A DNA stretch of 53,552 nucleotides from Nemertoderma westbladi (lineage: Eukaryota > Animalia > Xenacoelomorpha). Location: assembly GCA_032718475.1 (NCBI GenBank), contig JAUCBJ010008468.1, positions 1-53,552 of the forward strand, in the 5' to 3' direction. Of the stretch, positions 15,561 to 43,000 are shown in pieces (within the stretch, counting starts at the first letter, position 1; the number at the start of each line of letters is the position of its first letter). Below the pieces are notes generated by a model. The model was not told the DNA's origin and did not search any database. It saw only the letters and a program-made list of their open reading frames with translations. The translations under genes were made by a program, and so were the position numbers.

Positions 15561-17850
15561 GGTGCGATTTGTTCATTAGTTATCTATCCTCTCATTCAAT
15601 ATTCTATCTCACTTCTTACAATCTTGTTTATTCTGTCATTAGTTTTCAGATTACATTTTGTATTATTATCTGCAATAAATTCAGAAATACCGCTACCTGC
15701 CTTTTCTTTTCACCATGATTCACTACGGTGAACACACTTAGGAACAGGATGGCCGGCTAGAGATCGGGCCGCAGCAATGAACGGGAACATCAAGGGAATG
15801 TAGACAGGAGACAACCCGCAATACCATCTTAGTTATTCGCCCATCGCCTGAAAGGTTAGACAGCGTTCGACGCCTTGCTACCTAAGCGTAAGACCAAAGA
15901 TCAAACGGTAGAAGTAGTGACACGCTGTAAGCCTAAAAATTACATCTTAGGGACTGTACTGTCTTAATTCAGGAAAAAACCGCAGTAGACCTTCATATTC
16001 CTACGGGGGGGGAGAGAGCAGGGAGATACTAGTACGCAGATAGGACGTAGGCACACCGGTACGAAGCATACACATTGGTAGGGTGCAGCAAACTGTACGC
16101 CTAACTCTTGCTAAGTGCAGGTGCGTCTGTGACTATTTGTAGTACAACGGTGTCCATTGCATTAGAACTTGTAGGCTAGGAGGGTTGCTGTGTTTCACCT
16201 GAATTGGGATTGTACCGTTCAGACGGTAGGGCAGTTTACAACTAGGCGTAAATAAATTGAGGCTATTAGGGATATACTAACATCTACCGTGTCCCCGCCA
16301 ACGTCCTGATAGGAAGTTACCCAGCCTACCTAGGTGACTAAAATTCTAGATAAGAGCCAGGATAGCTATTAGTAATAGTACGCCTACTGTAGTAAACTAA
16401 CACATTTCTTCTTAGTATTAGGGACCTGGTAAATTAAAATTGCCGAATTCTGGGCGTAGCATTAACCTTATGCCTGAATTTGAGTCCTGGAAATACGCAA
16501 GAGGGGAAGGAACCTTATCATTCGTGAGTATTGGACCTACAAGTTACAAAATTTAGAATATTTTCGTAAAATGCACACTGTACCCAGTAATTATATATGT
16601 GAAGGAGCAAAACTGCTTTTGACCATTCAGAATTAACACACACGCGCGTTAGAAATTATTTACACCTCAAAATATATAAAATTAACTTTGTCCGTACTGT
16701 GCTTTGCCCGCTAGTTAGACATCTCCAAATCTCTGCCTCTGTACCTAGCTAGCGTCCCTTTCGCCCAACCATATAAATCACACCGCGGCAAAGTATACGA
16801 GCCTCTTAGTCCGTCAGTGAGTCAGCCTGATTTTAGGATTCGCTGCGCGGGATTTTGTTTCATCGAAGTTTGTCTGCTCGTAGACTGTTTTCTGCCTCAC
16901 CGGTTATAAGAGATCGATACTGCAATATATTCGCTTACTTAGAGTTTACTGTTTTGGTGAGAAGGTCGGATTTATGATTTGATTCACAAACTTTACAGTA
17001 GGATATTGCAGGTATTGTTACTGTCTCTTCTAATAGTAGGAATATGTTTTACTGAACTACGGTTCGGTAGGACTAAAGTTATTTGAAAATTTTGTATTTT
17101 GAGGTAAAAATTTATATTTGATTAGCTAAGTGCTAATTTTTTGAAATAAAATTTGATTTGAACCGCGTGTAAAATATTTTTTGGAATTGAATACCGGTGT
17201 TTAAAAAGGGTTTAAATACCATATTGTACCGGTACAAAAATTTTCGTAAAAGTAAAACCTAACTCTTTTGTTTTTCAGGATTCAGAACTAATTTCTAGAC
17301 TGTAACGGGAGCAAGACCGTGTTTAGCAAGTTTGGGAGATAGATAACTCAATAACTTTGGTTGGGAAAATCGCGCTTCGTCCGCAACGTTAAAAAACGGA
17401 AAGGTTCACGTCCGGTTTGTAACTGGGAATCTGTTTTTCTGGAGAATTATTGGAGTGGGTGAGTTCGAAAAGTTGCATAAATAAGTTAGGCATTACCGTA
17501 TTAGTTAAAATTATTGTGGGTTCCACTGTCTCAAGTATTTATGCATTCCGTATGATTTCTTTGTTCATTGCTGAATTAGTCCGTATTATTGTATTTAATT
17601 TACCTTTTGATAACGCATATCGTTATCCGATTTATTTGTTATAAAATTGGCCGCTAGGCTAATTTTATTATATACTTATTCCGTGACATTTATTTGCTGT
17701 AAAATTGGCCGTTTAGGCTAATTTTATCCATCTGCTATAAAATCGGCCGGTAGGCTAATTTTATATGACTGTAATTAGTACCGTTTAGATATAAATACGG
17801 TAAGTTTGATACTTTGACACTCACATTTTACTTGACTTACAACTACCGAA

Positions 17851-19941
17851 ATGAGTGACAAACAAGACTATACGAAGAATACACAAACCGACTATGACTC
17901 ATGTGACGGAGATAAGTCAGAAGCGGAAGAACCACAGGGGAAGACTCGTGAGCCTACCGAACCTACACCGTGCGCGTCACCAGTATATCCAACGGGAGTA
18001 CCGGATGCCGTAGTACGAGGCGACGGCAGGACTGAGGATTTCCTAACGGTCCCGCAACCTAGATACAGGGAAACGGAGATGGTAAGTTCAGTAGGAAGCA
18101 CAGAAAGTGTGGTTAGAAGCGTCGGCGGTTACATGGCGCATATTACCAGGAGTATTGGAGAAGGCCAACGCATATTAGACGAGTTGACCGCTCCGATGTC
18201 TCGGTTCGAGTTCTACACTCTACAGGTGAGAGTACAGAGTAAAGTATATAAGTCCGTGGATAACCTAATTGGTCTGCAAGATCTAGCTAGACAGAGACAG
18301 GATATGGACACTCAGCTTAGAATCCTCGAGAAACTAATGATCGCTAGAGAGAAACTGATTCAGTTTAAGTCGACGATTAGGCAGATACAACAGGAACAAG
18401 CGGACCAGTTGTTAGGTGAGTCAGTTTCGGACGAATTATTGCAACCCGAGGAAGAACAGGAACTGTATAGGCTAGATGGACAATTGAAACACCTGACAGA
18501 TCACTTACGCATGTGCGGCGAGGACGTCGGAGATTGGGAAACCGTGCCGGAGGCTACGAGGGAAACTTCGCTCGCACAAATCGAACCGGCACCGGGAACA
18601 CTAAATCAATCACTGGTGAGTATTCGCAGCGAAATTGGCGAGGTGAGTATGGCTACGTCAGAAATTGCCCGACAACAGCAGCTCTACAGACAACAACAGG
18701 AGATGGAGGAACAAACTCAACTGCTAATGGCACAAGCAGCCGTACAAGAAGAGAAACTACGCATTGCGAATGTTGCAAGAATCTCTCATCTGCAAGAACA
18801 AGCCGAGTTGGAAGCAGCCGAGATGGAAAGGTTAGAGTTGGACATTGCGCAACAAACGGCGGCAGCGGCAGCGGCCGAGTTAGAGCGACAAGCGACGGCG
18901 GCAGCAGCAACGGCCGAGTTAGATCGACAAGCGGCGGCGGCAGCAGCAGCGGCCGAGTTAGAGCGACAGAGGTTAGTATCAGAAGCGAGAGCCGAGATGA
19001 AAAAACGGCAAATAAAGGCTCAATCAGCTATACGACAAGCGGAGTTTGAGGCGCAACAACAACAGACGGAACAACGCGAGAAGGAAGTTAAACTTCATTT
19101 CGAACTCGGGAAGAAGGCGAGAGAATTAGCCAACGCGAAGGAAGATCTGGATCTACAAGCCCGCGATCGATCGATGAGATCTCGTGACGGACACGATTTA
19201 GACCGGTTAGAGGTAAGACATCGCCAAATTCAGGAACGGAAGAAGGAAGGAAGCGTAGGAGCACCCGGACGGGAACGACAATTAGTAAAAGACTTGTGTC
19301 AACGATTCCCACAAGTAACTCCTATGTTTGCACCAATTATGACTAAGAAACCTGTTTCGATTGCGGGTAGTAGTGATATTTCTCCTATCCATGGTGCGAC
19401 GGAACACAGGTTGGTTATTCCGGACAAATTCATACCTTCAAGAGCAACGTCGTCGCCTATTTTGAAAGTCAAGGTAAGTAACCCATTGACTACCGATCGT
19501 AGTAGTTTGTTGACTGGACCTGCACTACTGACGACAAAACAGGTGAGTCCACCTTTGACACCTAAACCGGTTACGCACTACGAATACCCAATGACGTTTC
19601 GACCTACAAGGCCAGTTCAGTTTACATCGCAATCTACGACTTCGAGGAAGACTTGTGAGCCTACCGAACAACGGAGACCAGTGGATACGCGACCGTTCAA
19701 CCAGTTTACATCGCAATCTACGACTTCGAGGAAGACTTGTGAGCCTACCGAACAACGGAGACCAGTGGATACGCGACCGTTCAACCAGTTTACATCGCAA
19801 TCTACGACTTCGAGGAAGACTTGTGAGCCTACCGAACAACGGAGAACAGTGGACGATGTTCCGAAACGAAACGTTAGAATTCGGACAACCCAACGGACGC
19901 GAATTATTGGAGTGGGTGAGTTCGAAAAGTTGCATAAATAA
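17851..19941 (+). CDS. gag: BEL Gag N-terminal region, copy 1 (open frame, coiled-coil, truncated by the duplication junction)
   Basis: 696-aa ORF homologous to 20301-22400, with Q/E/A-rich coiled coil and three 84-bp repeats. It runs into the duplicated leader at 19901. Confidence 0.75.
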   Translation: MSDKQDYTKNTQTDYDSCDGDKSEAEEPQGKTREPTEPTPCASPVYPTGVPDAVVRGDGRTEDFLTVPQPRYRETEMVSSVGSTESVVRSVGGYMAHITRSIGEGQRILDELTAPMSRFEFYTLQVRVQSKVYKSVDNLIGLQDLARQRQDMDTQLRILEKLMIAREKLIQFKSTIRQIQQEQADQLLGESVSDELLQPEEEQELYRLDGQLKHLTDHLRMCGEDVGDWETVPEATRETSLAQIEPAPGTLNQSLVSIRSEIGEVSMATSEIARQQQLYRQQQEMEEQTQLLMAQAAVQEEKLRIANVARISHLQEQAELEAAEMERLELDIAQQTAAAAAAELERQATAAAATAELDRQAAAAAAAAELERQRLVSEARAEMKKRQIKAQSAIRQAEFEAQQQQTEQREKEVKLHFELGKKARELANAKEDLDLQARDRSMRSRDGHDLDRLEVRHRQIQERKKEGSVGAPGRERQLVKDLCQRFPQVTPMFAPIMTKKPVSIAGSSDISPIHGATEHRLVIPDKFIPSRATSSPILKVKVSNPLTTDRSSLLTGPALLTTKQVSPPLTPKPVTHYEYPMTFRPTRPVQFTSQSTTSRKTCEPTEQRRPVDTRPFNQFTSQSTTSRKTCEPTEQRRPVDTRPFNQFTSQSTTSRKTCEPTEQRRTVDDVPKRNVRIRTTQRTRIIGVGEFEKLHK

Positions 19942-20300
19942 GTTAGGCATTACCGTATTAGTTAAAATTATTGTGGGTTCCACTGTCTCAAGTATTTATG
20001 CATTCCGTATGATTTCTTTGTTCATTGCTGAATTAGTCCGTATTATTGTATTTAATTTACCTTTTGATAACGCATATCGTTATCCGATTTATTTGTTATA
20101 AAATTGGCCGCTAGGCTAATTTTATTATTTACTTACTCCATGACATTTATTTGCTGTAAAATTGGCCGCTAGGCTAATTTTATCCATTTGCTATAAAATC
20201 GGCTGGTAGGCTAATTTTATATGACTGTAATTAATACTGTTTAGATATAAATACGGTAAGTTTGATACTTTGACACTCACTTTACTTTACAACTACCGAA

Positions 20301-21900
20301 ATGAGTGACAAACAAGACTATACGAAGAATACACCTACCGACTATGACTCATGTGACGCGGATAAGTCAGTAGCGGAAGAACCACAGGGGAAGACTCACG
20401 AGCCTACCGAACCTACACCGTGCGCGTCACCAGTACATCCAACGGGAGTACCGGATGCCATAGTACGAGGCGACGGCAGGACTGAGGATTTTCTAACGGT
20501 CCCGCAACCTAGACACAGGGAAACGGACATGGTAAGTTCAGTAGGAAGCCAGGAGAGCGTAGTTAGAAGCATCGGAGGATACATGGCGCATATTACCAGG
20601 AGTATTGGAGAAGGCCAACGCATATTAGACGAGTTGACTGCTCCGATGTCTCGGTTTGAGTTCTACACCTTACAGGTTAGAGTACAGAGTAAAGTACATA
20701 AGTCCGTAGATAACCTAATCAGTCTACAAGATCTAGCTAGACAAAGACAGGACGCGGACACTCAGTTCAGAATCCTCGAGAAATTAAAATTAATGATCGC
20801 TAGGGAGAAACTAATTCAATTTAAGACGACCGTTAGACAGATACAACAAGAACAAGCGGATCAGTTGCTAGGTGAGTCAGTTTCTGACGAGTTATTACAG
20901 CCCGAGGAAGAACAGGAATTGTATAGGCTGGATGGACAATTGAAACATCTGACGGATCACTTACGTATGTGCGGCGAAGACGTCGGAGATTGGGAAACCG
21001 TGCCGGAGGCTACGAGGGAAACTTCACCCGCACAAATCGAACTGGCACCGGGAATAATGGATCAATCATTGGTGAGTATTCGCAGCGAAATTGGCTAGGT
21101 AAGTATGGTAACGTCAGAAATTGCTCGACAACAGCAGCAGTTCTACAGACAACAACAGGAGATGGAGGAACAAATTCAACTGCTAATGGTACAAGCAGCA
21201 GTAGAGGAAGAGAAACTACGCGTTGCGAATGTTGCAAGAATCTCTCATCTGCAAGAACAAGCAGAGTTGGAAGCAGCCGAGATGGAAAGGTTAGAGTTGG
21301 ACATTGCACAACAAACGGCGGCAGCGGCAGCGGCTGAGTTAGAGCGACAAGCAGCGGCAGCGGCTGAGTTAGAGTGACAAACGGCAGGGGCAGCGGCTGA
21401 GTTAGAGCGACAAAGGGCAGCGGCAGCGGCCGAGTTACAGCGACAAAGGTTAGTTTCAGAAGCGAGAGCCAAAATGAAAAAACGGCAAATAAAGGCTCAA
21501 TCAGCTATACGACTAGCAGAGTTAGAAGCGCAACAACAACAAACGGAACAACGCGAGAAAGAGGTTAAACTTCATTTCGAACTCGAAAGGAAGGCGAGAG
21601 AATTAGCTAACGCCAAGGAGGATCTGGATCTTAAAGCCCGCGATCCATCGATGAGATCTCGAGACGGACACGATCTAGACCGGATAGAGGTAAGGCACCG
21701 CCAAATTCAGGAACGAATAAAGGAAGGAAGTGTAGGAGCACCTGAGCAAGGACGAGAGTTGGTTGGTGAATTATGTCAACGATTTCCTCAAGTAACTCAT
21801 ATGTTTGCACCAATTACGACAAAAGAACCTGTTTCGATTGCGGGTAGTAGTAATATATCTCCTATCCATGATGCGACGGAACACAGGTTCGTTATTACCG
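20301..21900 (+). pseudogene. gag: BEL Gag N-terminal region, copy 2 (stops and a frameshift)
   Basis: Diverged copy of the 17851 ORF with stops at 21096-21098 and 21375-21377 and a frameshift near 21900 into the long ORF. Confidence 0.8.
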
Positions 21901-24900
21901 TTTATACCGCCAAGAGCAACGTCATCGCCTATTCCGAAAGTCAAGGTAAGTAATCCGCCAATAACGGATCATAGTAGTTTATTAGTCGGACCTACATTAA
22001 TGACGACTAAACAGGTGAGTCAACCTTCGACACCTAAACCTGTGACACACTACGCAAACCCAATCGTATTCAGGCCTTCAAGGCCGTTAGACTCAAATGC
22101 CAACACGCGACCACAAATCCAGTTTACATCGCAATCTACAACTTCGAGGAAGACTTGTGAGCCTACCGAACAACGGAGACCAGTAGACACGCGACCGTTT
22201 AACCAGTTTACATCGCAATCTACGACTTCGAGGAAGACTTGTGAGCCTACCGAACAACGGAGACCAGTAGACACGCGACCGTTTAACCAGTTTACATCGC
22301 AATCTACGACTTCGAGGAAGACTTGTGAGCCTACCGAACAACGGAGACCAGTAGACGATATTTTTAAACGGAATGTTAGAATTCGGACAACCCAACGGAC
22401 GCGAGCACGTCGACCACCATATCCAGATGATAGTAGTACTTCGAGCGAATCGGAATACCCGAAACGCGAGGTGTTTAGAACAGGGGCGGCCGATGAATAT
22501 AAACGCGAGCGTTCAGACAACTCCTTTGTAGACAATCCTCCACGAAATACACCAACACAGAAGGCGTTACAACCAACGGACGCAATCAGTACACAACAGT
22601 TCGCCGACATCCTGCGACCAGTTGTTAACAAGTTGGCTCAGATTGAGGAACGTCTGGAGGAAACTCAAACCGATAGTTCGAGGAACACTGAATTTGAACA
22701 CAATAGCCACCCGAAGGATCCGCAAAGACCAATACCTTCGAGAAATACTTCGTATCAAAGAAAAGCGCCAAGAAGGGAGAACATCAACCAGGTTGCCAAC
22801 CAAGGACGCGAAACTTTGAACGTTGCCGAGGAAATAGCGAAATTCGCAGCTAGACAAGGATTACCGGTGCAACAACCACCTAAGTTTTCCGGTAGCTCAA
22901 AACACTGGTACACTTTCGTAGACTATATCGAATCTCAGATCGCCATGTGCGCCTTTACATCACGGGAGAAGTTTAATTACCTGCTTCAAACGTTGTCGGG
23001 AGAACCTAAACGTTTGGCGGAGACCTTCGTTGGTGTACCGGACGCCTTCGAACTAGCGTACGATCGTTTAACTTCGATCTACGGAGGTACAGTCAGCATG
23101 GCCAGGTCAGTGATAGAGGAACTCTGTAAGGGAGGGGCTATTACTAAACCCGTCGACTTATTGAAACTGGCTGACGAAATAAAGAACGCTATCACTACTT
23201 TGAGATCCATTGGACAACTTGACTACGGGAATACCCCTACAGTCCTATTAAAGATCATAGGACGACTCCACCATCGACTTCGTCGGGAGTGGAGGAAGAT
23301 CGAATACCAGCGGGAAGAGCGGGGTGGATTCTTAAAACTGGAAGATGTGTACCTTTTGATATCCAGGGAAGCAGTGGTAGAAACTCGATCCAACTACACT
23401 GACCAGCACATCGTAGCAGAAGGAATCACCTTGCCATCCTCAAACCGACAAAAACCTCAGACAACATCCACCAAGACGGCCACTTACGCCACACCGACGG
23501 AAACACGACAATTCTCGGACGGTAGTAGGGTATCTGCGCCCATTGGGATAAAACAGACTAGACAGCAACTCAGTACAGACTTCAGCGGCTGCCAATACTG
23601 CGAGCATTTAGGCAAGCGGTATATCGGTCACAAGTTGAGAGGTTGTCGACAGTTTCGCGAGTTAAACTCGGAAGAACGACGGCTGCAGATACGGCCATTG
23701 GACTCTTGTTGGCGGTGTACGCGACACGGACACGTCCGCAAAGATTGCCCAAACACCGACACTTGTCCATCCTGTGGACGCAACCACGACGGTCTGCTCC
23801 ACACAGACAGCCACACGCCGACAAAACGCTTCGCCAGGGAACACCCGGAAGCAGCAGCGAGATGTGATGCGGCCTACAAGAATCGAGAATCGAAAACGAC
23901 TCCAACCTTTGTGACACATATTAAGGATTGCTTCTCAGAACAATCCGGATCGTCGGACGAAGAGTCAGAAGACGACGACGTATATTCCGATGGAGACGAA
24001 CAACCATCGATCGCGCTTCTGACGACTGACCAATTAAAGGGATTCAGTGTAATTCCGATTAAGATTACTGGCACAAAGGGGAGCAAGAGAATCTACGCTA
24101 TCCTGGATTCAGCCTCATCTCACAGCTACGTGGATGAGCAGATAGCTGATGTAGTGACGGATCTCAGACAAGGTAAGCGCGTCAGTTACACCGTAAGTAG
24201 TATGCACGGACAACGTGCAATACCAGTGACACGAGTTAAGTTAAACTTAGACACTCTTCTTCCAAAATCGCAACACAGCGAAAAGGAGAGGTCTTTGTTA
24301 CCCTTTAAGGATTTGACTTTTGCGGCCACCAAGGACTTTAGTAACCTACTAGGTCCTGTCCCAGAACAATCCTTGGAGGACCGTAAGTATTTCAGACACC
24401 TTGGTGTACCTGAATGTCCTGTCAATTATAGATCGGTAGCAATGCTGATCGGGACAGACCAATTCAACCTACATCAAGTGTGGGAAACCAGACCATCGGC
24501 AGTCGTAGCGGGAAACGCATACGCCTGTAGAATGCCGATAGGGTGGTATACTCGAGCGCCTGTGCGCACACTGGACATAAGTGACGAGGAAGACGATGTA
24601 CAAAGTACATGTAGTTTATTAACTACAAATTCAATTCATTCCTTTTCACACGACGTGGACCATACTACCTTACATACAAAACATGACAGACGTGTAACTA
24701 GTATGATAAGTCACAAGGAGCAGCTAATCCACCAGGTGAGTTTAGAACTTGGGGAGAAGACGAGTCAGCTAGAGATTCCATCGAAGACAGATGATAATGC
24801 CGGAAGGCTTGCGAGTCTACCTACCCCAACAACCTCAACAATGCCCGTCGATATCGATGACGACGCGTTAAGAAACCATCAAGTGGAACAAGCTGCATTG

Positions 24901-26226
24901 GACAAAGAATTAACGGAGAAGACTATCAGGTGGTTAGAACAAGATACAGCTGAACCTGGTAGCTACGAACCATGTATGTCGGAACAGGAGAAACAATCTT
25001 TGAGGATCATGGAAGATACTATCCGCCAGACGAAAGACGGACATTATGAGGTGGGGATGCTATGGCGTAGCCAAAGTCCTAAACTCATAAATAACTATCC
25101 ACTAGCTTTAAGACGTTTACACTCGATACGACAACGTCTATTAAAGGACGAGAAAGCCCATCTGCAGTACAACACTCAGATGGAGACGTATTTGTCCAAG
25201 GGATACGCTATCCGAATGACTAACCCAGAGATAGTAACTGACCAGACATACTACTTGCCACATCACTTCGTGAGACACCCCGACAAACCAGACAAAGTAC
25301 GTGTAGTCAATGACTGTGCTGCTCTGTTTGAGGGAATGTCCCTCAATAGCGAGTTGATGGATGGACCAAACATGAATAATTATCTTGTGGGGGTGATTAT
25401 GCGCTTCCGTCAGTGTCAAGTAGCTTTTACTTGCGACGTCGAAGCTATGTTTCACCAAGTGAGAGCGTTAGAGCAAGACAGAGACAGTTTGAGGTTCCTC
25501 TGGTATCCGGAAGGAGACTTAAGTCTACCACCGGCGACTTACCAAATGCAAGTTCGCGTTTTCGGTGCCAGGGACAGCCCAAACTGTACAATGTATGCCC
25601 TAAAGCAAGCCGCTAGGGATCAGAAACACCTGTATGACCCAGAGATAATTAAGATTGTGGAACGTGACTTTTACGTCGACGACGGTTTACAGAGTTGCGA
25701 CACAGTAGAACGTGCTACAACAGTAGCACATCAATTACGGGACTGCTTAGCGGGCGGAGGTTTCAACCTCACCAAATTCGCCTCAAACAGTGCCGAATTA
25801 GTAGACTCATTTGGAACGACTGAGCGTGGAGGTGGTGACATAGACCTAGAGTTCGAACCACTACCGACGACAAAGGTGTTGGGGCTCTTTTGGGACCCAA
25901 ACACGGACAACTTTCGAGTGAAGGTGAGACTGGACAGTCAAGAAAACACACTGACAAAGAGATCATGCTTGTCAAAATTGAGCCGATTGTTCGATCCATT
26001 AGGATTCATCAGTCCAATAATACTGCAAGCCCGCATTTATATGCGCAGTATTTGGAAGGATGGACTGACATGGGACGAGCCGATCTCATCAGACCAAGTG
26101 GACTTATGGAAGACCTGGGAGGCAGAATTATCTTCGCTAGAGGATTATTCCATACCCAGAGTCTACTTTCCATTACAAACAACATTTCCTGACAACTTGG
26201 AATTACATTGTTTTTCCGACGCCAGT
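21805..26226 (+). CDS. pol: BEL gag-pol, exon 1: Gag core, Zn knuckles, aspartic protease, RT and start of RNase H
   Basis: PPKFSG..W, CQYC..H..C, CWRC...GH...DC, CPSC..H, AILDSAS, DVEAMFHQV, FGARDSP and FYVDDG. It ends LHCFSDAS. Confidence 0.92.
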
Positions 26227-27440
26227 ACCTAAAGAGGTGAGGTCTCTATAGGGGTGCTGGCAACAGGCGGCGGCGGACTCGTGAGGGTCTGGGGGCACGT
26301 TAAATTGGAATATAGTGCTAGGGAGTCACTGAAGGCCCTCGTGTCTAACGAACCATGAATTGCCATGGTGCCGTGGTATCGCCTAGTCGGCCTGTTGCCG
26401 TACTGCCAGTCCTGTACACAGTAGGGGTGGTGGCATGGCGTGATTTGTGGTTCATGTGGCGTGAACTATGTTTTGTATGTGAGCAATCAGTGGCAGTTTG
26501 CTTGGGGCTTGGATGGTTCCATTGGCTATTAGCTGTTCCGTTTTTTTGATACTATATGTTATTGTCTCCATGTTCAGCTGATTGGTCTTTGGTGGCATTG
26601 GAATAAACCGTCGGGTCTTGAGTTTTCTGTTGCTGTGGGTACGTGAGTACACATGATTGTATGTGTGGCCACTGCGAGTGGGTATGGGAACCCTTGCCAG
26701 TTGGACAAGACGCCGCTGGTATTAGTAGGACCATACTTTACTGCGCCCCAGCATACTATGGGCACACAAAGTTATTTTACCTTGTCGGTAAAATAAGGTA
26801 CTCTCGACTTTTTCGTGTTTCAGTCGATACAATTTTGTCCCTTCTGATTTTGTCTTTACCGATTTTGACCCCGATTTTGTCTTTACCCGATTATGTCCTC
26901 TGTGTGTGCATGGTATGTGTCAGATTTTGTGTTTACCGTAGTGTACTTGATTTCGTGAACATCTGTTGAGTACACGTGTACAGGACGGGTAAGTGGTTAC
27001 TTGTTCCTAGCTTTCGAGCTAGTCAGTATTGTTGAGGAACGGTGTCCCCTCAATACTGCCGGCGAGGCAGGTGAAAACGAGTCAAAATTCCATGTTGGGT
27101 AGCGCAAGCCCACGTGGGACAAGACCGTCGGTTAGGCCCAAGGGCGACCTTGGTGCTCGATCGCTATCGACTGGTCCACCTGCCGGTTGACTCTTTGTTA
27201 TACTTTGAGTTGGCTCAATGTACAGTCAGGCCACAGTAAGTTGACAGTAGCCGCCCATCTGGCTACACGTTCGACGAGCTGTGCTGGTGTGATCGGGGGA
27301 CCGAAAACAGAACCCGGGAAGCATCAGGCCACCCTCCGGCCCGGTCTGATAATAACATCTGTCGGACTGGCCCCAGGGGTGGTGGAAACACGTCCGCCTC
27401 GTGGGTGCGCCTCGGGGAGGAGCCCAGAAGGACGAAAGCG
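26227..27440 (+). ncRNA. Group I self-splicing intron (IE-like core) in the RNase H domain of pol
   Basis: The exon ends in U and the insert ends in G. P1: exon GCCAGU pairs with IGS GCUGGC (26256-26261), with U.G at the splice site. P3 27066-27073/27177-27184; P4 27077-27083/27123-27128; P5 27088-27095/27112-27119; P6 27129-27133/27159-27163; P7 U(C)GACUG 27167-27173/CAGUCA 27223-27228; P8 27185-27193/27207-27215. J8/7 is CAAUGUA. Removal gives in-frame FSDAS-DNGFGVAAY. Confidence 0.88.
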
Positions 27441-30338
27441 GACAACGGCTTTGGTGTGGCAGCGTACTTGCGCAGACAAGTAGACTCAGAAGAATTCGAT
27501 GTTTCGCTCATTACTTCTAAGGCAAAAACAATGCCTACTAAGTATATGACGACACCACGAGCTGAGCTACAAGCCGCAACACTGTCAACCACAATTGTGA
27601 ACCTTATACAGACAGAACTACAGTCAAGTTTACAGATATTTTATTGGACTGACGCGATGTTGGTTTTATTTTACATAAACAACGACACACTTGAATTCAA
27701 GACATTCGTAGCTAACCGTCGCGCGGAAATTCTAGACCGTTCAATAAAAGAAGATTGGCGACATTGTCCCGGACCACAAAACCCAGCCGATATTGCGTCA
27801 AGAGGAATGATGCCTGAGGAATTCTGTAAACCGGAGAACAAAGAATTTTGGCAACACGGACCACAGTTCTTACAAAGATCAACACTAAATTGGCCACCAC
27901 TATATGACAACAAGTCTAACACTATACCTAAGGACGCCGAAATCAAAAAACCAAAGAAAGGGAAAGCAAAGAAAAAGACGACGGCGGCTAAACTCAAGAA
28001 GAAACCGAAGGCGAAATGGAAAGATATAACTTCAAAGGTCAAGAACGGAAGACTTGCGAGCCTTTCTACACCAGACATATCGCCAGACGGTCAACCAGAC
28101 ACGTTACTAGACAGCCAACCAGACATTTTGCCAGACATATCACAAAATGTTCTACCAGACACTAGTAACATATTGACAAATAGTGAAGCCGCAGTTTCCC
28201 TATTGGAGCGGCCTTCTATTAACAAACAACCAGATATGTTACCAGACGTATCGCCAGACACGTTACTAGACGGTCAACCAGACGTTTTGCCAGACACGTC
28301 ACTAGATATTTCGCCGGATGTTCCGCGAAACATTTTACCAGACATGTCACAAAATGTTCTACCAGACACTAGTAACATATTGACAAATAGTGAAGCCGCA
28401 GTTTCCCTATTGGAGCGGCCTTGTATTGACAAACTATCAATTTTGACACACTTGAGCAGCCATAAGCACGGTGAAACCTCATGTATTACAGATGTGGGTA
28501 GTACCTACGCTAATGTAAATACAGGTGTTACTTTGCGCTCAAGAGACATACCAAACTTGCAACCTATGGTGAGACCCGGGATTAATATCGGCAGAAAAAT
28601 AAGTTTACCGAAACCCAGTGACCCCATAGAGTTCAAACCACCATTAACGATCGACTTACAAAGTACTGACAATCTAGGTAAAAAGACGAAGAAGGACAAA
28701 TTACTTGTAGACCCGGACGGATCAACAGTCAACAAGGGAATACTTACCGGCGGACCCGTGGGCCCTTCTAGTAAATCAAAACCTTCCAAATTCTCCATTG
28801 ACTATCCTGATGACGTCACAAATACTTACGTCGACCGTATTGTAAACCTAACAGATTCTTGGACAAACGCTTGCCGAAAATTAGCGTGGATTGTACGTTT
28901 CGTACAATACGTTAAAGGCAAACGCGACTTTACACGTCGACTTACATTGGCTGAGATTGACAGGTGTGAAATTAAATTAATTCGCCATTACCAACTGCGA
29001 TATTTCGCGCGCGAATTCACATCTATAAATCAAGGTCAACCAATCAAGTCGTCACCGATACTGAGTTGGAGTCCGATTATTTATAATGGCTTAATTTGTC
29101 ATAAATCTCGGCTTCAAAACATTGACTTTAACACAAACTTTAGATACCCAATAATAATACCACAACATCACGAACTACAACGTGCAATGATACTGGACGC
29201 ACATTTACATCTGAAACACGCTGGAAGACACCACTGTCTTTCCTACTTACGTACAAGATTTGTATTAATTAGACCCAGTAAAGCGTTAAGTTCAGTAACA
29301 CGTACGTGTATTATTTGTAAAAAGGTACATTCTAGAATAGGTACCCAAGAAATTAGTGAACTTCCACAAGCACGACTTCAAGCATTCAGACCACCTTTTA
29401 CAGAGACTGGAATTGATTGCTTTGGTCCCATACATACGAAACGTGGACGTATACTAGTAAAACGCTGGGGACTGATTTTCACATGTATGTCCAGTAGGGC
29501 AGTTCATATTGAACGTGTGATGGATCTTTCCACCAACGCATTTATACTAGCATTGCGGCGATTTATCGCTAGACGCGGACTAGTGAAATGCTTGTACTCA
29601 GACCAAGGGACAAACTTTGTTGGTGCTCGAAATGAGATTGCTAGAGCCTTTAAGAAATTAGATCATGATCAAATCTCGAACGAACTACAACCTCACAAGA
29701 TTGTTTGGAAGTTTAATCCTCCAGATAGTCCATGGAGAGGCGGAGTCTGGGAGAGATTGATTAGATCTATAAAAACAGCCATGGCAAAGGTCATTCCAGT
29801 AAACCACATATTGACAGACGACCAACTGACAACACTGTTTGTTGAAATCGAGGCAATACTAAATACTAGACCAATAGTATTAGTACCCGATGACAAACAA
29901 TCTCAGTTTGCTTTGACACCGGCACACCTGCTTATGCAGGCACCGACTACATTAATGCCTATTTCAATTCCAACAGAAAGCGACAGCTACGGTAGAAAAG
30001 CGTGGAAAATCACGCAACTACTGGCTAACAAATTCTGGGAAATGTGGCAAAACCATTATTTGCCCTCTATTTCTGCCAGAACAACTTTGTACAATAACAC
30101 CCGCGCATTAAAGCCGGGAGATCACGTGCTGTTAGCAGAAGTGAATCTAAAAAGACGCTTCTGGATAACAGGTGTAATTTTAGCCACACATCCATCTATG
30201 GATGGAGTTACAAGAACTGTTACGGTACGGACAATTGACGGTCGTACAGTTGACAGACCGACTCAACGTCTCGTACTTCTTGAAGAGACTCGTAACGAGT
30301 CTGGAGATTACAAATCTCCAACTAATATTAGTAAATAA
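27441..30338 (+). CDS. pol: BEL pol, exon 2: rest of RNase H, low-complexity linker and integrase
   Basis: GFGVAAY, TTPRAELQAA, WTDAM, NPADIASRG, HHCC (HLHLKH..CIIC) and DDE motifs (IDCFGP, SDQGTNF, WERLI). Confidence 0.92.
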   Translation, partial: DNGFGVAAYLRRQVDSEEFDVSLITSKAKTMPTKYMTTPRAELQAATLSTTIVNLIQTELQSSLQIFYWTDAMLVLFYINNDTLEFKTFVANRRAEILDRSIKEDWRHCPGPQNPADIASRGMMPEEFCKPENKEFWQHGPQFLQRSTLNWPPLYDNKSNTIPKDAEIKKPKKGKAKKKTTAAKLKKKPKAKWKDITSKVKNGRLASLSTPDISPDGQPDTLLDSQPDILPDISQNVLPDTSNILTNSEAAVSLLERPSINKQPDMLPDVSPDTLLDGQPDVLPDTSLDISPDVPRNILPDMSQNVLPDTSNILTNSEAAVSLLERPCIDKLSILTHLSSHKHGETSCITDVGSTYANVNTGVTLRSRDIPNLQPMVRPGINIGRKISLPKPSDPIEFKPPLTIDLQSTDNLGKKTKKDKLLVDPDGSTVNKGILTGGPVGPSSKSKPSKFSIDYPDDVTNTYVDRIVNLTDSWTNACRKLAWIVRFVQYVKGKRDFTRRLTLAEIDRCEIKLIRHYQLRYFAREFTSINQGQPIKSSPILSWSPIIYNGLICHKSRLQNIDFNTNFRYPIIIPQHHELQRAMILDAHLHLKHAGRHHCLSYLRTRFVLIRPSKALSSVTRTCIICKKVHSRIGTQEISELPQARLQAFRPPFTETGIDCFGPIHTKRGRILVKRWGLIFTCMSSRAVHIERVMDLSTNAFILALRRFIARRGLVKCLYSDQGTNFVGARNEIARAFKKLDHDQISNELQPHKIVWKFNPPDSPWRGGVWERLIRSIKTAMAKVIPVNHILTDDQLTTLFVEIEAILNTRPIVLVPDDKQSQFALTPAHLLMQAPTTLMPISIPTESDSYGRKAWKITQLLANKFWEMWQNHYLPSISARTTLYNNTRALKPGDHVLLAEVNLKRRFWITGVILATHPSMDGVTRTVTVRTIDGRTVDRPTQRLVLLEETRNESGDYKSPTNISK

Positions 30339-31000: not shown

Positions 31001-32739
31001 ATGGAGAAGGGGATACAAGGAGAGCCGAGATGGGGATATGATATCCAAGAGGAAGCAGCAGCGCCATTCGAAAGATTTGGAGCCAAGGACTACACTATAT
31101 TTGGTATAAAGGAATTATCAGAAAGTACAGCGAAACTCGCAAAGACTAAATATGACAACCCTTCTACAACTCCGACGCTCAGTGTAATGCCTTTACTCGA
31201 GCAGGATTTAGTATATTTCGAGACGTGTATCTTCGCTGTGCGGGATCTCTTATCGAAAGACCATCTATGTTTACATTGTTACCCTATGAAGGAGAACGTA
31301 TCGTGGAGATTACGGATGAATCACGGCAGACGCGCGCGCCTATCGGTCACCTTGGTGATGATTTCGAAGTAACTACTACGATCACTGACGATCCTTTAGA
31401 GGAACTTCTTGAGATAGAAAGGAACCTCCCGAAGAAATCTCAGACGGAGATTCGACAACTTGAAGCAACAGATGCTATAGTTTGTATACAACCCTCAGAA
31501 ACCTACCAACCCATAGATCCAGATGATTACGATTATAGTGTGGGAGGAAGCGCTCGACCGATTGGAGATCTTATATACGAACGAGTGTGGTACCCTGCCA
31601 ATACGATGTGTGGTAAATGTGGCGTCGCTGGACATCATTCGACCAAGTGCAGTGGAAAGCACATTACTACGACTCAGCTAATCTGTGGATGGTGTGGGGA
31701 TCAAGGGTCTCATACCTTTTATACTTGCTGGAGATTTATGGCTCAATGTACTTATTGCAATATAAAAGGGCATCGAGCATCTGAATGCCAACTAAGAGAC
31801 ATACCCTATGAACACGAATCTGTAAAACTCGTGAGAAAATTATTCGATGAGTGGGAAGATTTAGCCGACGAACATGTATCGGCACAAAGAAGACGATTTC
31901 CGATGAGGGCGCATCTTGGATTTTGGGCGGTAAATCCCCAAACGATGATGTCGGAAGGATACATCTCCGCTATGCCCCAATATGACGAACTTATCGAGGT
32001 AGTCGATATTTTGCCCCACGACAGTGGATTCCGAGTAGTGCGCGAGTATCTATTACAGATTCACCCGGATAACAAAAACACGTGGAATTTTCAGAAAGTC
32101 GTTAATCGCATCACGTATGGTGAATTCGATCGTTTCCGAACTGAAAAGCGGAATAAAGGAGCTTGGTTAACCGTCGCATGGGCGTACCGAGCCGCGTTTT
32201 ACCACAAACGTATACGAGCGAGCGTATTCGAGGAAGAGGAGGTCCTAGAGGCGACAAATATACCAGCCACTCCGGTTGCGCCGTCTGCACGTCACCCTCG
32301 GGAGGACGGACAGGGTAGGATCATACGGGTCCAGAAAGTGGGCCAACAATTAAAGAAAATTATTAATATAGAAGAACGCAAGGGGGTTGAGCCGACTATT
32401 CGAATTACTCGGGATACGGTATCGCTTCCTAGAGAACCAATAGGAGGATCGGGACACACACCAGCTGATCAAAAGGGGGCGCAAGCTGCTCTTGGGTCTG
32501 CGTCGTCCGCTTCTCGCGCGTTCCCAGACGTTCTACCAACTGTAGTGACAACTGATCGGTCACGAGGAATCGGTCGAGGTTTTGGGATGCCAAATAGACG
32601 AATTTGCGAGGAAATAGTCGCACCGTCTCTCAACGTCCAAGCGAAACCAGTGACTCGCCCCACAAGTCCCATATCGCGAGCAAAGTCACCTGTGCGCAGT
32701 TTTCGAGGACGCGGCAGGGCTCGATCAACAAAGCGATAA
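31001..32739 (+). CDS. Extra 3' ORF of the BEL element with three CCHC zinc knuckles (probably one ORF with a frameshift near 31250)
   Basis: CGKCGVAGHHSTKC, CGWCGDQGSHTFYTC, CTYCNIKGHRASEC and an Arg/Gly-rich C-terminus. No signal peptide or TM segment is evident. Confidence 0.7.
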
Positions 32740-33954: not shown

Positions 33955-36900
33955 ATTAAACTTTATTACTAAACGGGTTCAGAAAAAAAAAAGAGTTAAA
34001 AGGTAAAAAGAGTTCAGGGTCCATCGAATAGGTCACCCGGAGAGGGACCGCCCGTCGCCATAACGGACGCCGCGTTGCCCACTAGAATGGCCACCTGAAT
34101 CCGCTGTAGGAGGAAGCGGAGTGAGCGGGGTTCGTGGGTGAATGCGTGCATTCGGGAGCCAACCTCCCGGAGGAAGGCCGCAGTCTCTGGGCCGGGGCGG
34201 CCGAGGGTCTCAAAGGCCACAGGATGGAAAATGTGGAGGCCCCACTGCTCCAGCTCGGCGTACGTCGCGCGTTTCCTCCGCTCTGCCTCCTCAGCTGTGC
34301 GCCCACCGGCGATGAGGGTCTGTTGGAGGTGGCTGGGGGCGAGGGGGTCGACTACCGTAGCGTCCCAAGTAAGGCTTCGTCCCCCGCTCCAAGGGGCGAG
34401 GCTCACCCCGTCCACTCGTTTCCCGTCGTTCCTGAAGAGACCCGGGGGTTCCAGGACTGACGGGATGTCGCAGCTGACCAGTGCCCGCCTCACCAAATTG
34501 TTTATCATGGTGTGACGGGGGTGCCGGCCCGCACTCCTCCGGCAGGAGAGGCCGTGAAGGCCGTCTGCGGCGACTGGACTACCGCAATGGTCACAGGTGT
34601 GGGGTTCCACCACCTTGCACCCGAGCCGGGTGGCGATGGCGATCCGGAACTGGGTGTCAGTTAGTTTCAGCCCCAACGAGGCGCAGGGGAGGGCATCGAG
34701 CCAGCAGCCCGCTGTGGGGTCGTCGACCGAGTTCAGCCGCGCGAGGTTCAGTTGCGATGCTGCGCGACGGATGCTGGCGAGGGACTCCTCGTGTACCGGG
34801 GCCATCCATGCGCGCTGGACAGGCACGGTGGGCAGCGCCGAACCGGCTGGAAGGGAGGTGTTGCGCACTGCGTGTGCCAACTCTACTGCCGGGCTAGGGG
34901 GGACCTCTGCAGACGGGTAGAGGCGGTTGGAGAGAGTAGCGCATGCAGCCGCGGAAGCCAAGAAGGCGGACGGTGCGAGCTGTGCTGCAGAACTCAGTCC
35001 AAGGCCGCCAACCCTTGCCGGGAGGCATGCCTGGGCCCAGGCCGAATCATCAAAGTGGGTGTTGGCGACCTCCTGGAGTGTGCTACGCTGGACACGATCA
35101 AAGTCCTGTAGTAGGGCCGGAAACCGGAAGCAGGGTGCCGTCCGCAGGAAGTAGGTCAACCGCGGCATGGCAAATGAGTTCTTCAGGAGGAAGAACCCAT
35201 GGTGGGCGTCGAGGAGCGGCAGGCGGCTAGCGAGAGTCGAGAGGTTTCCTACCTTGGAGGCGAGGCAGGACTCGATGGCGGAGTCTCCAATAGGCGCACC
35301 CAGCATCGTCAGCTCGTCCAACGGCGGGTACTGGATGCCAGCGCAAATGGTATCAAACTCCCGACGTATTTGGGCGCGTGACTCCTCCGTATCTGGCCCC
35401 AGGAAGAACACCTCACTCTTCCTGGGGTTTATCGTTAAGCCGCACTTCCCCCCCTCCTCGATCAACCGCGCCAAGTCCCGCAGTACCACCTGGGAGTCGT
35501 CGGAGAGGTTCCCATCGTCCAGGTACCAGACGTTGAAGGCAGACTCCATTGTCTGGATGATGGGGTTAGCGGTGTCCCCGAAGAGACGAGGGCCGTCAGT
35601 GTCCCCCTGCTGAACACCCTCGTCGGAGAGGATGGTGTCGTCGCCATGCATGAGGAAGGTCGCTTCCCCATAGGCCGCGAGGGTGTAGTTGTATATGCCT
35701 GGGTACTGGTCATAGACAGCTTCCAGCATCGAATCCCGCCGAATGGTGTTGAATGCGTTGCTGAAGTCGACCTTCAGCAGCACGGTACCCGGCCGGTTCT
35801 CTTCTCCCACTAGTGCCCTAACTGCATGGGCGGCAGCTTCCGCTCCCAGCTTACAGCCGATTCCCAGCTGAACCATCCCATACGACTCCGACCGCTGCTC
35901 CGCCACCAGGTGTCCAACGTACTTGCCGCACAGGCGCCGGAGTGTGACCCCCACCGCTATGGGCCTGATGCCCCCGCCCACCTTAGAGAAGGCAAACAAG
36001 TTAGCCCCAAAGAAGATAGGCCGGATGACTACTGGTACCTCGCCTGCCACCGTCGTGTCGACGAACCTCGCGAGGGCTGCGAGGAAGCGCTCACCCGCTA
36101 CGCCGCTGGTTGGTGCGACAAGATCCTTGTAGATCTGGGGGGGGACAAGATCCACCGGCACTCCCGCAGGGGAAGGAGGCGATCATCTTCCGGAGGGTTG
36201 CTGGTGTAGATGGCCTCGCTGACGGCGCAACTGGCGGTGATGGGACTCGTCTATCAATGGGTTTGGACGGGTGCTTACTGCGGAGCATCTCCAACGTCTC
36301 AGGGGTATCGGGAGCGATGGAGTCCTTGGAGGAGGCCAAACGGATGGCCCCCTTCACGTCCCCGTCCTCGATCTTCTCGGCCACTGCCGAGGCGAGCCGG
36401 ACGGATTCTTCTTCAAGCTTCTGGCGACGGGCCCCAGTGGGGCGACGCGGAGGTGTAGGGACCCCAGAACCCACTAGGGAGGTGGAACGGAAGTCTGAGA
36501 TCAGGCGGTTAACCTGTGAGGCGAGGGATCTCTGATGCTTCTTCCCACCTCGCCTCGGTGCCGGGATGCAGCAGTGGCCCACAAGAAGAAGCCTGATCCA
36601 GCCGTGGACGTCCGACGGGTTCTCAGAAATCGCATTGAGGATATCTGATAGCAGGTCGGCTAAGTTAGCCCTCGACGCCTTGGGAACGTGCCTCAGCTGC
36701 CTGCATCGCCAGCCCCGCAACACCGCCAGGATTTCTTTATCTGAGAATACCCCATTCGGCGGCTGGATCATGGTAGGCTGAGGCGAGGCGGTGGGCTCCA
36801 TCGGGGGAACATCAGAGCCTGGGCAGCGCGCGCCCACACGGCCGTGGATGCGCAGGGACCCGTTTGCCTTAGTTGAAAAAACCCTCGCACAGACGGGACA

Positions 36901-37288
36901 AGTGCCGCTACCTAAGGGGATTGGTTCACCCACTGGGTCCGTAGGGACAGACACACCGTCTACCGGGGCTTGGGGGGCAGACACACCGACTCGACCTGGG
37001 GACACTCGACCTGGGGACACTCGACCAGGGGACACTCGACCTGGGGACACCCGACAAGGGTACAACCCACTAGGGGACACCCGGCTTGGGGACACCCGAC
37101 TTGGGGACACTCGGCCTGGGGACACTCGACCGGGGGACACCCGACCTGGGGACACCCGACAAGGGTACAACCCACTGGGGGACACCCGACTTGGGGACAC
37201 CCGACTTGGGGACACTCGGCCTGGGGACACTCGACCGGGGAACACCCGACTTGGGAACACCCGACTTGGGGACACTTTGACACTGAAA
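33955..37288 (-). mobile_element. CRE-clade non-LTR retrotransposon, near full length, one frameshift
   Basis: N-terminal Zn finger CPVC..H..C, then RT (RPIAVG, KVDFSNAFN, QQGD, WYLDDG), CDHC..H..C and the RLE motif RVDG..WDATVVD. ORFs 37326-36091 and 36161-34014 join by a frameshift near 36150. Confidence 0.88.
36985..37277. repeat. 15-bp tandem repeats at the 5' end of the CRE element
   Basis: Unit ggggacac(t/c)cgac(c/t)t, with a longer-period duplication. Confidence 0.9.
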
Positions 37289-37783
37289 AAGTTACAAAAT
37301 TTAGAATATTTTCGTAAAATGCACACTGTACCCAGTAATTATATATGTGAAGGAGCAAAACTGCTTTTGACCATTCAGAATTAACACACACGCGCGTTAG
37401 AAATTATTTACACCTCAAAATATATAAAATTAACTTTGTCCGTACTGTGCTTTGCCCGCTAGTTAGACATCTCCAAATCTCTGCCTCTGTACCTAGCTAG
37501 CGTCCCTTTCGCCCAACCATATAAATCACACCGCGGCAAAGTATACGAGCCTCTTAGTCCGTCAGTGAGTCAGCCTGATTTTAGGATTCGCTGCGCGGGA
37601 TTTTGTTTCATCGAAGTTTGTCTGCTCGTAGACTGTTTTCTGCCTCACCGGTTATAAGAGATCGATACTGCAATATATTCGCTTACTTAGAGTTTACTGT
37701 TTTGGTGAGAAGGTCGGATTTATGATTTGATTCACAAACTTTACAGTAGGATATTGCAGGTATTGTTACTGTCTCTTCTAATA

Positions 37784-40038: not shown

Positions 40039-43000
40039 TGTCGTGTCCAGTATTACTTAGGCCATGGCCTATGATATAGGATTAGGATTACCGGTATGCA
40101 CATATATACTACAGTACTATATCAGTACGGCAGTACACTGCAGTACTTGTGTACACTGGTACGACTGCACAATGTATAGAGCAATATACATCATATCTAT
40201 AGATTATTATGCTTTTATATGGATATAACATTGGCGACGAGTCGGTCGATCCATGTGGTGGTAACATTTCTACCTACAGACTTACTTAAGCTTCTTACTG
40301 GCTTACGCCACTTACAGATTTAGGCTTACCAGTACTGCGAAAGGAGAAACTGATCTGGTGACTCTGGATTTAGTGATAAAAGATTCTGGCACCGGTACAG
40401 AGAAAACTCAGGCCATTTGCTTACAAGTATAGGCCTACCTATTTGGTACAACATTACAGTTGTACAACTGCCGGTATTATTAACCCACAACTACCAGACT
40501 ACCGGTATTTATTAACCTACAATCGCTTACAGCTTACAGCGCTTACAATATACAACAGTACAGTTGTAAAATTTTCATATTAACAACCTAGGCCTAGCAG
40601 CCTAACCTAGCATGCATATTATATTATAGCAGTTCCATGATTACAGGAATTGTTCTCGACATAAATTAGGAGCCAAAGCCAATACAGTAATAGCAATACT
40701 GTAGGCCGCTTCTGACAGTTCGTAGTTAAAAAAAGATAAATACTGAGATATAAGTTATTACAAAATCACAGTATCGGTACACGTTACAGTGTTAAGGGAT
40801 GGCCGAAGCCAGACATATCTCCCTACGTGCACCAGAACCATTTAAAATTTCATATGATGTCAGTTCCGTAACCCCTCGCTGGGAAAAGTGGCTAAACACT
40901 TTCGACATATATTTGTCTGCACTGGGTGTCAAAGACCCTGAACAAATGAAAAGCATTCTTCTACATATATCTGGTGAAGAGGTACAGGACCGCTTTGTTA
41001 CATTGACTATTCCACAACCTGTGCCTGACACTAATGAAAATGTTTACACAGTAGCACGTACATCACTAAATAATGAATTCGGCAAAAGAGAAAATGAAGT
41101 ATTTTCAACATTCAGGTTTAACTCACTAACACGAGAGCCAAATGAGTTATTCAGCTCATATATAGCACGACTTCGGAAACAGGCCAAGTATTGTAATTTT
41201 GGCAATGCTTTAGAGCGAAATATGCTAATATACATGCGATGTATTCAAATTGCTCAAACGCTAGAACAGACATCTAAACAAGCACTAGATATTGAAGAGT
41301 TCGCACGATCTACAAAACTAGTGGGACAAAGTGACGACATTGATGACCTTGAAGTTAATAAAATAGCTAAATTTAAAAACCGATATTCAAGGCCAAAAGC
41401 AAACGCTGAACAGCAATGGCAGCGAAAAACGGTAAATTACAAATACCAGAACAAGCCGCCAACTGCAAATTCTGTCAGCACACCCCAATATACACATTGT
41501 TACCGATGTGGGAATACAGATCACAAAGTTCCTGATTGTCGAAATTCAGCAAAAATCATCTGTAATGCATGTGGTGGAATAGGACACATGAAAGGAGTAT
41601 GTATGAAAACTAAACGAAACTTACGACAATTAGTCGACGACAATGAAGAAACTGAAACGATTTATAGCGAAGAAAGCACATCATCTGATGAGTATGGTGA
41701 TTTATGCATCAATGCTCTATTTAAGGAACACAAAATTCATAAGATTTCTACTGCGGGTCCTTGTTACAATGTAAATATCAACAATACAAGCATCCCTATA
41801 CTGATTGATTCTGGAGCAGAATGTAATATCCTCACATATTCTGCATACAAAACACTACAACAACATGGTGAATACATGAATCTAACACCCACTAAAAGTA
41901 TCATATATCCATACAATTCAAAAACTCCGCTAAAAATCGTTGGAAAAGTGCGAGCAACAGTGGAAGCCTGTGGGCAAGCAGCTAAGGTAAAGTTTATTGT
42001 TGTTAGTACACAAGACTTATCTCTATTAGGATACAAATCTGCCACAGCTTTGGATTTGCTACGGGTTGGCCCACCTAGTGTGAAAGAAAGAGGAATGAAG
42101 ATAGGAGTGCGACAATTATTAGAATGCAAAAACTCACAAAACATTAGACACATCACATCTGGACAATATTATATCAAAATATTCCAATGTTTTCTCAGCC
42201 ACAGGTCTCATGTGTGACGAAAATGGCACCCCAATACAAGTGAAATTACACCTCAGAGAAGATGCAGACCCTGTCGCAGTACGTGCATCACGTATTCCAT
42301 TTCATCTCCGCCGCCCGTGTGAAAAAGAACTTTCCATCCAGGAGGAGGCTAATATGATTGAAACTGCCACTGGTCCTACCCCATGGGTTTCAAGAATGGT
42401 ACTTCAAATTAAACCCAACCGCACAGATGATGAAAACCTTCCCGTAGTTCGGATTACGCTTGATGCCCGGGAGCTTAATAAACATCTAGTACGCGAACGG
42501 CATCCGATACCGACACTCGAAGAAATTGTTGATCAAATTGCCTTGGAAGAACCTCCTAATCCATCCAATATGACTGATGACTTGACTTTATATTACTCAC
42601 ATTTAGATTGTGATCGTGGGTACCATCAAATTGGTTTACATCCTGATTCACGACCACTTACAACATTTGCCACTCACAAAGGAATGAAACGTTATACTAC
42701 TCTGGTTATGGGTGTATCAACCAGTGGAGAAATTTTCCATCGTGAGTTGGAACGTTCCATACAAGGGATTGATGGAACAAGAAATGCCAGTGATGACATA
42801 ATTGTGTGGGGTTATGGGAAGCAGCAACATTTAAACCGTCTGCAGCAAGTGTTAGCAAGATGCAAAGAACGAAACATAAAATTAAAACGATCAAAGTGTG
42901 TATTTTTGCAGACAAGCGTTGAATTCCTGGGGCATCTACTTACAAACACGGGGCGGACACCCTGTGAGAAGAAAATTGAGGCAGTAAAAAACCTAAAAAT

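Follow-up and report, generated by a model that had tools for sequence, protein, structure and literature searches.

Group I introns of nuclear rDNA (subgroups IC1 and IE) share with the intron described here their nuclear location and their general fold. According to a 2024 review (PMC10964413), rRNA genes are the only nuclear genes known to house group I introns, and such introns hardly occur in animals. Giant viruses carry group I introns in protein genes, among them polr2a/b of Bodo saltans virus (PMC5871332) and L425 of mimivirus (PMC2688009), and, as here, routine Rfam scans miss or barely detect them; the present host is instead a reverse-transcribing element in chromosomal DNA. The introns found with RF00028 in polinton-like viruses integrated in protist genomes likewise occupy protein genes of mobile elements within nuclear DNA, but those hosts are DNA viruses of protists, neither retroelements nor animals (PMC12220804). 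In bacterial IStrons, an IA2 intron is fused to IS200/IS605 or IS607, and its RNA serves a second purpose in competition with splicing (PMC13565253); a group I intron is tied to a transposon in both systems, but the IStron intron contains the transposon whereas the present one is a non-coding passenger inside a retrotransposon gene. A group I intron is also placed at the site nad5P426 in PMC13254553. Introns at nad5-426 have the same P3-P4-P6-P7-P8 core as the present intron, which differs from them in lacking a nuclease gene, in being richer in GC, in its large P2 and P9 domains and in its nuclear retrotransposon host. In the main texts of the open-access literature searched, neither LTR nor non-LTR retrotransposons were found to carry a group I intron.

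The DNA analysed here, a stretch of 53,552 nucleotides referred to as the window, contains an insert that is almost certainly a real group I intron. The favoured reading, to which a probability of about 0.85 is given, places a group I intron without an ORF in pol of a BEL/Pao retrotransposon, whose host is likely an animal; the intron likely self-splices, and its likely route of spread is reverse splicing followed by reverse transcription. Direct support covers the fold, both boundaries, the covariation of guide and exon across hosts, an intron-less joint and near-identical introns at unrelated sites. The insert (1214 nt) splits pol as follows:

21796..26226, plus strand: exon 1, the 5' part of BEL/Pao gag-pol (DUF1759, RT region and first half of the Pao RNase H-like domain)
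26227..27440, plus strand: group I intron in which no protein gene was found, delimited by the domain split, the exact joint and the end of the match of divergent copies at 27440
27441..30338, plus strand: exon 2, the rest of the RNase H-like domain, a low-complexity linker and the integrase (H2C2, DUF5641)

The pol ORFs around the insert run, in the ORF list, from 21796 to 26232 and from 27240 to 30338, with 1477 and 965 open codons in the flanking frames. The last base of exon 1 is U26226, in phase 0 and directly behind the FSDAS codons; the first of exon 2, 27441, continues the frame of the long downstream ORF. The Pao RNase H-like domain (Pfam Peptidase_A17) is divided accordingly, exon 1 matching profile positions 1-88 and exon 2 positions 90-161, in agreement with the coordinates, motifs and size given by an earlier, sequence-only reading of this DNA. 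That reading had also proposed that excision restores the spacing typical of BEL elements, and the same two-residue spacing between an uninterrupted motif and a G-[YF]-G-like turn is found in 111 of the 120 BEL Pol matches listed, the others being three without a spacing value and six without the motif. One relative, P0008, stops at the DAS motif; it is known as protein only, a nonsense change is equally likely, and it was not taken as a sign of an intron. The ends of the insert are as the sequence-only reading had them: repeats of 2-11 nt sought at both ends revealed no target-site duplication, the 25 longest repeats in the window include no terminal inverted repeat of the insert, and GT-AG, GC-AG and AT-AC ends are absent, the insert ending AC..CG with no alternative cut. 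The 10 ORFs of the insert (49-115 aa) gave no match in Pfam, and no homing nuclease gene is among them.

The interrupted element carries the Pfam domains DUF1759, Peptidase_A17, Integrase_H2C2 and DUF5641 in a Gag-RT-RNase H-integrase order. Its Pol is 37-45% identical to the 120 relatives listed, among which all 18 that bear a species name are from animals; Belpaoviridae are a metazoan family according to the ICTV (PMC8742986). Two direct repeats, identical and 21 kb apart, are the candidate termini:

16541..17035, plus strand: 495-nt direct repeat, candidate 5' LTR
37289..37783, plus strand: identical second copy of the 495-nt repeat, candidate 3' LTR

TG..CA ends, a target-site duplication and a tRNA primer site were sought at these repeats and none was seen. 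The 5' gag region is duplicated in tandem (2.5 kb, 17444-22404, 88% identity), with frameshifts in the second copy. The linker between RNase H and integrase (27990-28450, plus strand) is of low complexity and internally repeated over about 350 residues. After the integrase lies a third ORF of 527 codons (31156-32739, plus strand) with Cys/His knuckles (zf-CCHC, E 0.023), which is not envelope-like by Pfam.

The fold proposed for the insert comprises the following parts:

26221..26261, plus strand: P1, exon hexamer 26221-26 paired 6/6 with the internal guide 26256-61, with a U26226.G26256 wobble
26264..26386, plus strand: P2 domain, multibranched and conserved in relatives (14 sequences)
26293..26346, plus strand: extra module within P2, with a predicted 4-bp pseudoknot 26313-16/26328-31
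26409..26986, plus strand: lineage-specific T/G-rich expansion, closed in the fold by a predicted 11-bp stem 26409-19/26976-86
27066..27184, plus strand: P3 (27066-73/27177-84), enclosing J3/4, P4, P5, P6/P6a, J6/7 and the 5' strand of P7
27167..27228, plus strand: P7 (27167-73/27223-28), with bulged C27168 and the G27169-C27227 pair
27229..27440, plus strand: P9 hairpins, predicted P9.0 (27230-31/27438-39) and terminal G27440

P1 is extended by four pairs (26227-30/26252-55). Within the core, P4 is formed by 27077-83/27123-28 with A27080 bulged, P6 spans 27129-63, J6/7 27164-66, P8 27185-215 and J8/7 27216-22. The guide-exon pairing with its wobble at the splice site and its extension, and the core helices in canonical order, had all been described in the sequence-only reading and were found as written there; its CUAGUC signature was retained in altered form, the conserved copy being the one at 26383, on the 3' strand of P2, and not that at 27019. 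The P2 domain is 96.9% paired over the 14 sequences, with two-sided change at 16 pairs. Its extra module sets the window intron apart from the viral members of its family, being absent from all 18 giant-virus loci scored, many of which are near-copies of one another, versus present in 19 of 28 other loci; its 4-bp pseudoknot covaries, and Rfam matched no family to it. The T/G-rich expansion has no BLAST match among the loci fetched (at least 150). At the 3' end, an end motif of the family is common to relatives at unrelated sites, and P10 with the 3' exon would amount by inspection to at most two pairs, P10 being optional in group I introns.

The region 26960-27460 is more stable than all of 100 shuffles (z -3.95), and the 5' part of the insert taken alone shows no excess over shuffles (z -1.2). 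A loose core descriptor is matched by 178 of 6124 shuffles (2.9%) and at 6 other core positions in the window; it is too permissive and, alone, weak support. With a stricter descriptor, written post hoc when the structure had already been seen, 66,073 shuffles gave P7 and P3 together 194 times, P1 919 times and both twice. The decisive support for a group I fold is comparative, and comes from covariation, guide-exon pairing and an out-of-sample profile.

Relatives were sought with a pattern of two motifs flanking P7, which yielded 30 viral and at least 120 metagenome loci. The core could be parsed in 94 of 151 sequences (59 distinct, with 3 misparsed rows counted); the other 57 are chance matches or short or long-looped loci. 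Over the 59 distinct cores, P3 pairing reaches 0.941 versus 0.758 in shuffled sets and P8 pairing 0.944 versus 0.732, values equalled in 0 of 2000 shuffles in either case, and P6 is nearly invariant (25 of 2000). In a 40-row core alignment, 99.2% of 1160 cells are paired, against 86.9% after shuffling (0 of 500) and 24-47% in slid controls, and two-sided change is seen at 13 of 29 core pairs, including 7 of the 8 pairs of P3. These shuffle statistics ignore kinship, but the family extends over mitochondria, viruses and retroelements. P4, P6 and most of P7 are near-invariant or fixed by the pattern and add little covariation support, and the P7 G-C pair is invariant in the 40 rows but is itself fixed by the search. 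At the last P7 pair the pattern tolerated a mismatch, and the 110 distinct matches have G-C 104 times, A-U six times and no mismatch; it is likewise paired in 16 further distinct matches set apart from these.

The guide follows its exon across hosts. The 5' domain is readable in 29 loci, in which 19 of 24 distinct guides form all six pairs with the exon of their own locus, and the splice-site pair is mostly U.G; with swapped exons the mean is 4.0 pairs and none of 1000 permutations reaches the observed value. The five guides that fall short of 6/6 count against this pattern. Moreover, a profile built from 22 giant-virus and mitochondrial members alone, a sequence-only profile standing in place of a calibrated covariance model, matches the window with E 1.3e-26, and with E 2.1e-8 when restricted to columns outside the search pattern. 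Under the covariation, this profile and the exact exon-exon joints described below, the group I fold, both splice sites and the pairing of guide and exon, as asserted from the one sequence, are upheld.

A search with RF00028 had been suggested as a check, with the absence of a hit among the grounds for rejection, and at two settings Rfam gave no relevant match to the insert. It also misses the family core in all 28 relatives scanned, and does detect another group I intron in L088 (51.9 bits). Because the missed relatives include mitochondrial nad5-426 introns, the result is a blind spot of the model, and a match to RF00028 is a detection aid and no defining feature of group I introns. The suggested subgroup, IE or IC1, found no support, the nearest known relatives being nad5-426 and giant-virus introns. 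The former are probably introns of subgroup ID. By its kinship with nad5-426 introns that bear LAGLIDADG_2, a type linked to ID introns in PMC7487136, the window intron likely belongs to ID as well. In sum, the group I intron is almost certainly genuine and likely ID-like, and its class of host is new. Comparison of the core with phage records by blastn gave five chance matches of 27 nt (E 1), and a pattern with the window's own P3 strand found no viral contig.

The hosts of the relatives were read by Pfam on 77 and 31 flanking ORFs, with several retroelement matches below cut-offs. In giant viruses they are capsid, polB, D5 and Rpb1 genes; the intron of L005 lies in the catalytic motif YGDTD of polB, with both ends read and the frame kept. 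Mitochondrial nad5 hosts carry LAGLIDADG genes (LAGLIDADG_2 in L066, L076 and L080), and the intron of L080, inserted after nad5 codon 142, that is at nad5-426, aligns with the window intron. Retroelement domains, including those of Ty3/gypsy and LINE-like elements, were found at 10 loci: RT, RNase H and gag domains in L041, L082, L087 and L146, integrase in L056, L060, L079 and L067 (L060 and L079 being near-identical), RNase H in L044 and zf-RVT in L075; L048, L051, L097, L100 and L102 are retroelement-like by eye only. L082, whose intron lies in RT, is the sole retroelement relative with Pfam matches on both exons and both ends read, and keeps the frame; its splice pair is G-C and not U.G, which counts against the general pattern. 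Where the sequence-only reading saw one case, the window intron belongs to a family that occupies many retroelement sites. In the tree it groups with viral and retroelement members (100/100), nad5 members form a branch of their own (100/100), and little else is resolved inside the clade, donor and direction between viruses and retroelements included. Several loci are of note in their own right. In L002-L004, L007, L009, L011, L013 and L025, family introns are found at the extreme end of a giant-virus major capsid gene; two stand in tandem in L009, L011 and L020, and DUF7487 ORFs often adjoin the capsid cases. A giant-virus-type Rpb1 in L089 (2165-4057) holds both a family intron and an intein, and a histone H3 gene (Pfam Histone, E 1.7e-34) in L059 (2-331, minus strand), a contig without the 5' exon, has a family intron ending directly before codon two or three.

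The stretch is present in 6 of the 9 sequencing runs listed, none of which is on record as RNA, a fact without bearing on expression; runs X1 to X5 are guessed to be DNA. The exact joint 26226-27441, proposed earlier as the junction to look for, was found in three of four runs, in three contigs of X1, two of X3 and two of X4, from three studies. Because no joint-bearing run is on record as RNA, these contigs may stem from DNA copies that lack the intron, either ancestrally or through retro-processing. X6 (organism B, share 0.07, guessed to be RNA) holds a few intron and exon pieces without the joint and is not used as evidence; differences in depth between runs likewise carry no weight here, since parts cannot be ranked by contig depth. 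One contig of X4 has adaptor-like sequence directly before 26227, the first base of the intron; presumably this is a cDNA template-switch oligo, in which case this one contig would record an RNA that begins there. The G run of the adaptor-like sequence is no proof of G addition, and no circularisation joint is listed among the run contigs. Alignment of the copies, likewise proposed earlier, revealed two pairs at which both letters vary to compensating ones, 27069/27181 in P3 and 27138/27153 in P6a, as read per position across contigs and not by linkage on single molecules. Other variants lie in the P4 bulge, the P6 internal loop, L2.1, L8 and P9, and none is listed in P7, J6/7 or J8/7. Counting against the fold are a variant at 27114 that breaks a predicted P5 pair and guide variants at 26257, 26258 and 26260, seen in rows that do not display their exon partners. 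Divergent contigs of X2, X3 and X4 match up to G27440 and then continue into unrelated sequence; related introns therefore likely occupy other sites in the same organism.

There is a strong expectation that the intron splices in vivo, and by the chemistry of group I introns it would do so by itself. A free guanosine held in P7 would attack the U.G site after 26226, and exon 1 would then attack after G27440, whereby the exons would be joined. In unspliced RNA, translation would end at the stop codon 26230-32, two codons into the intron, without half of RNase H and all of integrase, so that the supply of these Pol activities would depend on splicing. The intron would be inherited only via reverse transcription of unspliced RNA, and the copying of spliced RNA would give intron-less elements.

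The insert could be conceived as another structured mobile piece (a MITE, SINE or solo repeat) or as a spliceosomal intron, given the absent Rfam match, the shuffles that satisfy the loose descriptor and the copies at other sites. Occurrence elsewhere as an independent transposon with target-site duplications had been named beforehand as fatal to the group I reading; copies do lie at other sites, but the insert has neither a target-site duplication nor a terminal repeat, and its AC..CG ends do not suit a spliceosomal intron. Homology to nad5-426 and polB introns and the P3-P7 pseudoknot speak the same way, and guide pairing, core covariation and the profile effectively refute this explanation. 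More weight, though still little, falls to a fossil intron that no longer splices; the elements that bear it would be non-autonomous passengers, and Pol would come from ancestral empty copies, represented by the joints. It would suit the guessed DNA nature of all joint-bearing runs, the rearranged state of the window copy with its frameshifted gag duplicate, and the degenerate copies of a related intron in other contigs. Decay of this kind is improbable, however, where copy changes are compensatory or in loops and spare P7 and its joining segments, where the flanking ORFs remain long and open, and where an adaptor-like end falls exactly on intron base 1.

The means of spread is less firmly assigned than splicing. 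L038 and L108 are 97.4% identical over a stretch that opens with the 6-nt exon target and closes with the terminal G of the intron, and their flanks are unrelated; one subfamily of 12 loci has about 10 different 3' flanks, and a subfamily resides in a high-copy non-coding interspersed repeat with 16 filled sites (L043, L050, L052, L062 and 12 more) and 2 empty ones, many of its copies being degenerate. Reverse splicing directed by the guide and fixed by a host reverse transcriptase is the simplest reading and is moderately favoured, because the window intron has no nuclease gene and near-identical introns share only the guide hexamer. The intron RNA would insert itself into retroelement RNA at the hexamer paired with the guide, and the reverse transcriptase of the host element would copy the intron-bearing RNA into DNA. 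Homing at the DNA level by a nuclease acting in trans, which giant viruses or their integrated forms might supply, with retroelements as frequent targets by virtue of their copy number, appears unlikely. Homing sites are long, and the 6 nt of exon common to L038 and L108 are too little for one; the insertions, moreover, are spread across gag, RT, RNase H, integrase and a non-coding repeat. Homing draws support, nevertheless, from the relatives in viral capsid, polB, D5 and Rpb1 genes and in nad5 with its LAGLIDADG genes, from the clade that the window intron forms with viral members, and from the 'offspring' introns seeded by nuclease-bearing ones that are described in Bodo saltans virus (PMC5871332).

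A wider reading of the family has even odds: an unrecognised clade of ORF-less ribozymes, invisible to Rfam, that would live in eukaryotic retrotransposons (BEL/Pao, Ty3/gypsy and LINE-like elements and non-coding repeats, animals included), would be shared with giant viruses, would move by reverse splicing with a host reverse transcriptase and would tune splicing by its P2 module. As a guess, the module may set the share of spliced RNA, for Pol synthesis, versus unspliced RNA, for inheritance of the intron. A covarying group I intron in BEL/Pao pol with retroelement relatives breaks the rule that confines nuclear group I introns to rRNA genes. Because the host RNA brings its own reverse transcriptase, the system is a natural setting in which to test a long-standing proposal, namely that group I introns without ORFs are carried to new sites by reverse splicing and reverse transcription; it also implies a ribozyme working on a Pol II transcript in what are likely animal cells. 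Splicing may allow the expression of retrotransposon copies that are counted as disrupted by insertions, surveys based on Rfam undercount group I introns, and such introns could be of use as tools for RNA circularisation and trans-splicing.

The window as a whole is eukaryotic DNA rich in repeats, among which are LINE-like, Ty3/gypsy and BEL/Pao elements. A profile search found no intron core in the Ty3/gypsy element (40796-45060, plus strand), which has three ORFs and a PNMA-type gag. Nested between the BEL body and the right-hand repeat is a GC-rich, LINE-like element with a reverse transcriptase (34014-37338, minus strand).
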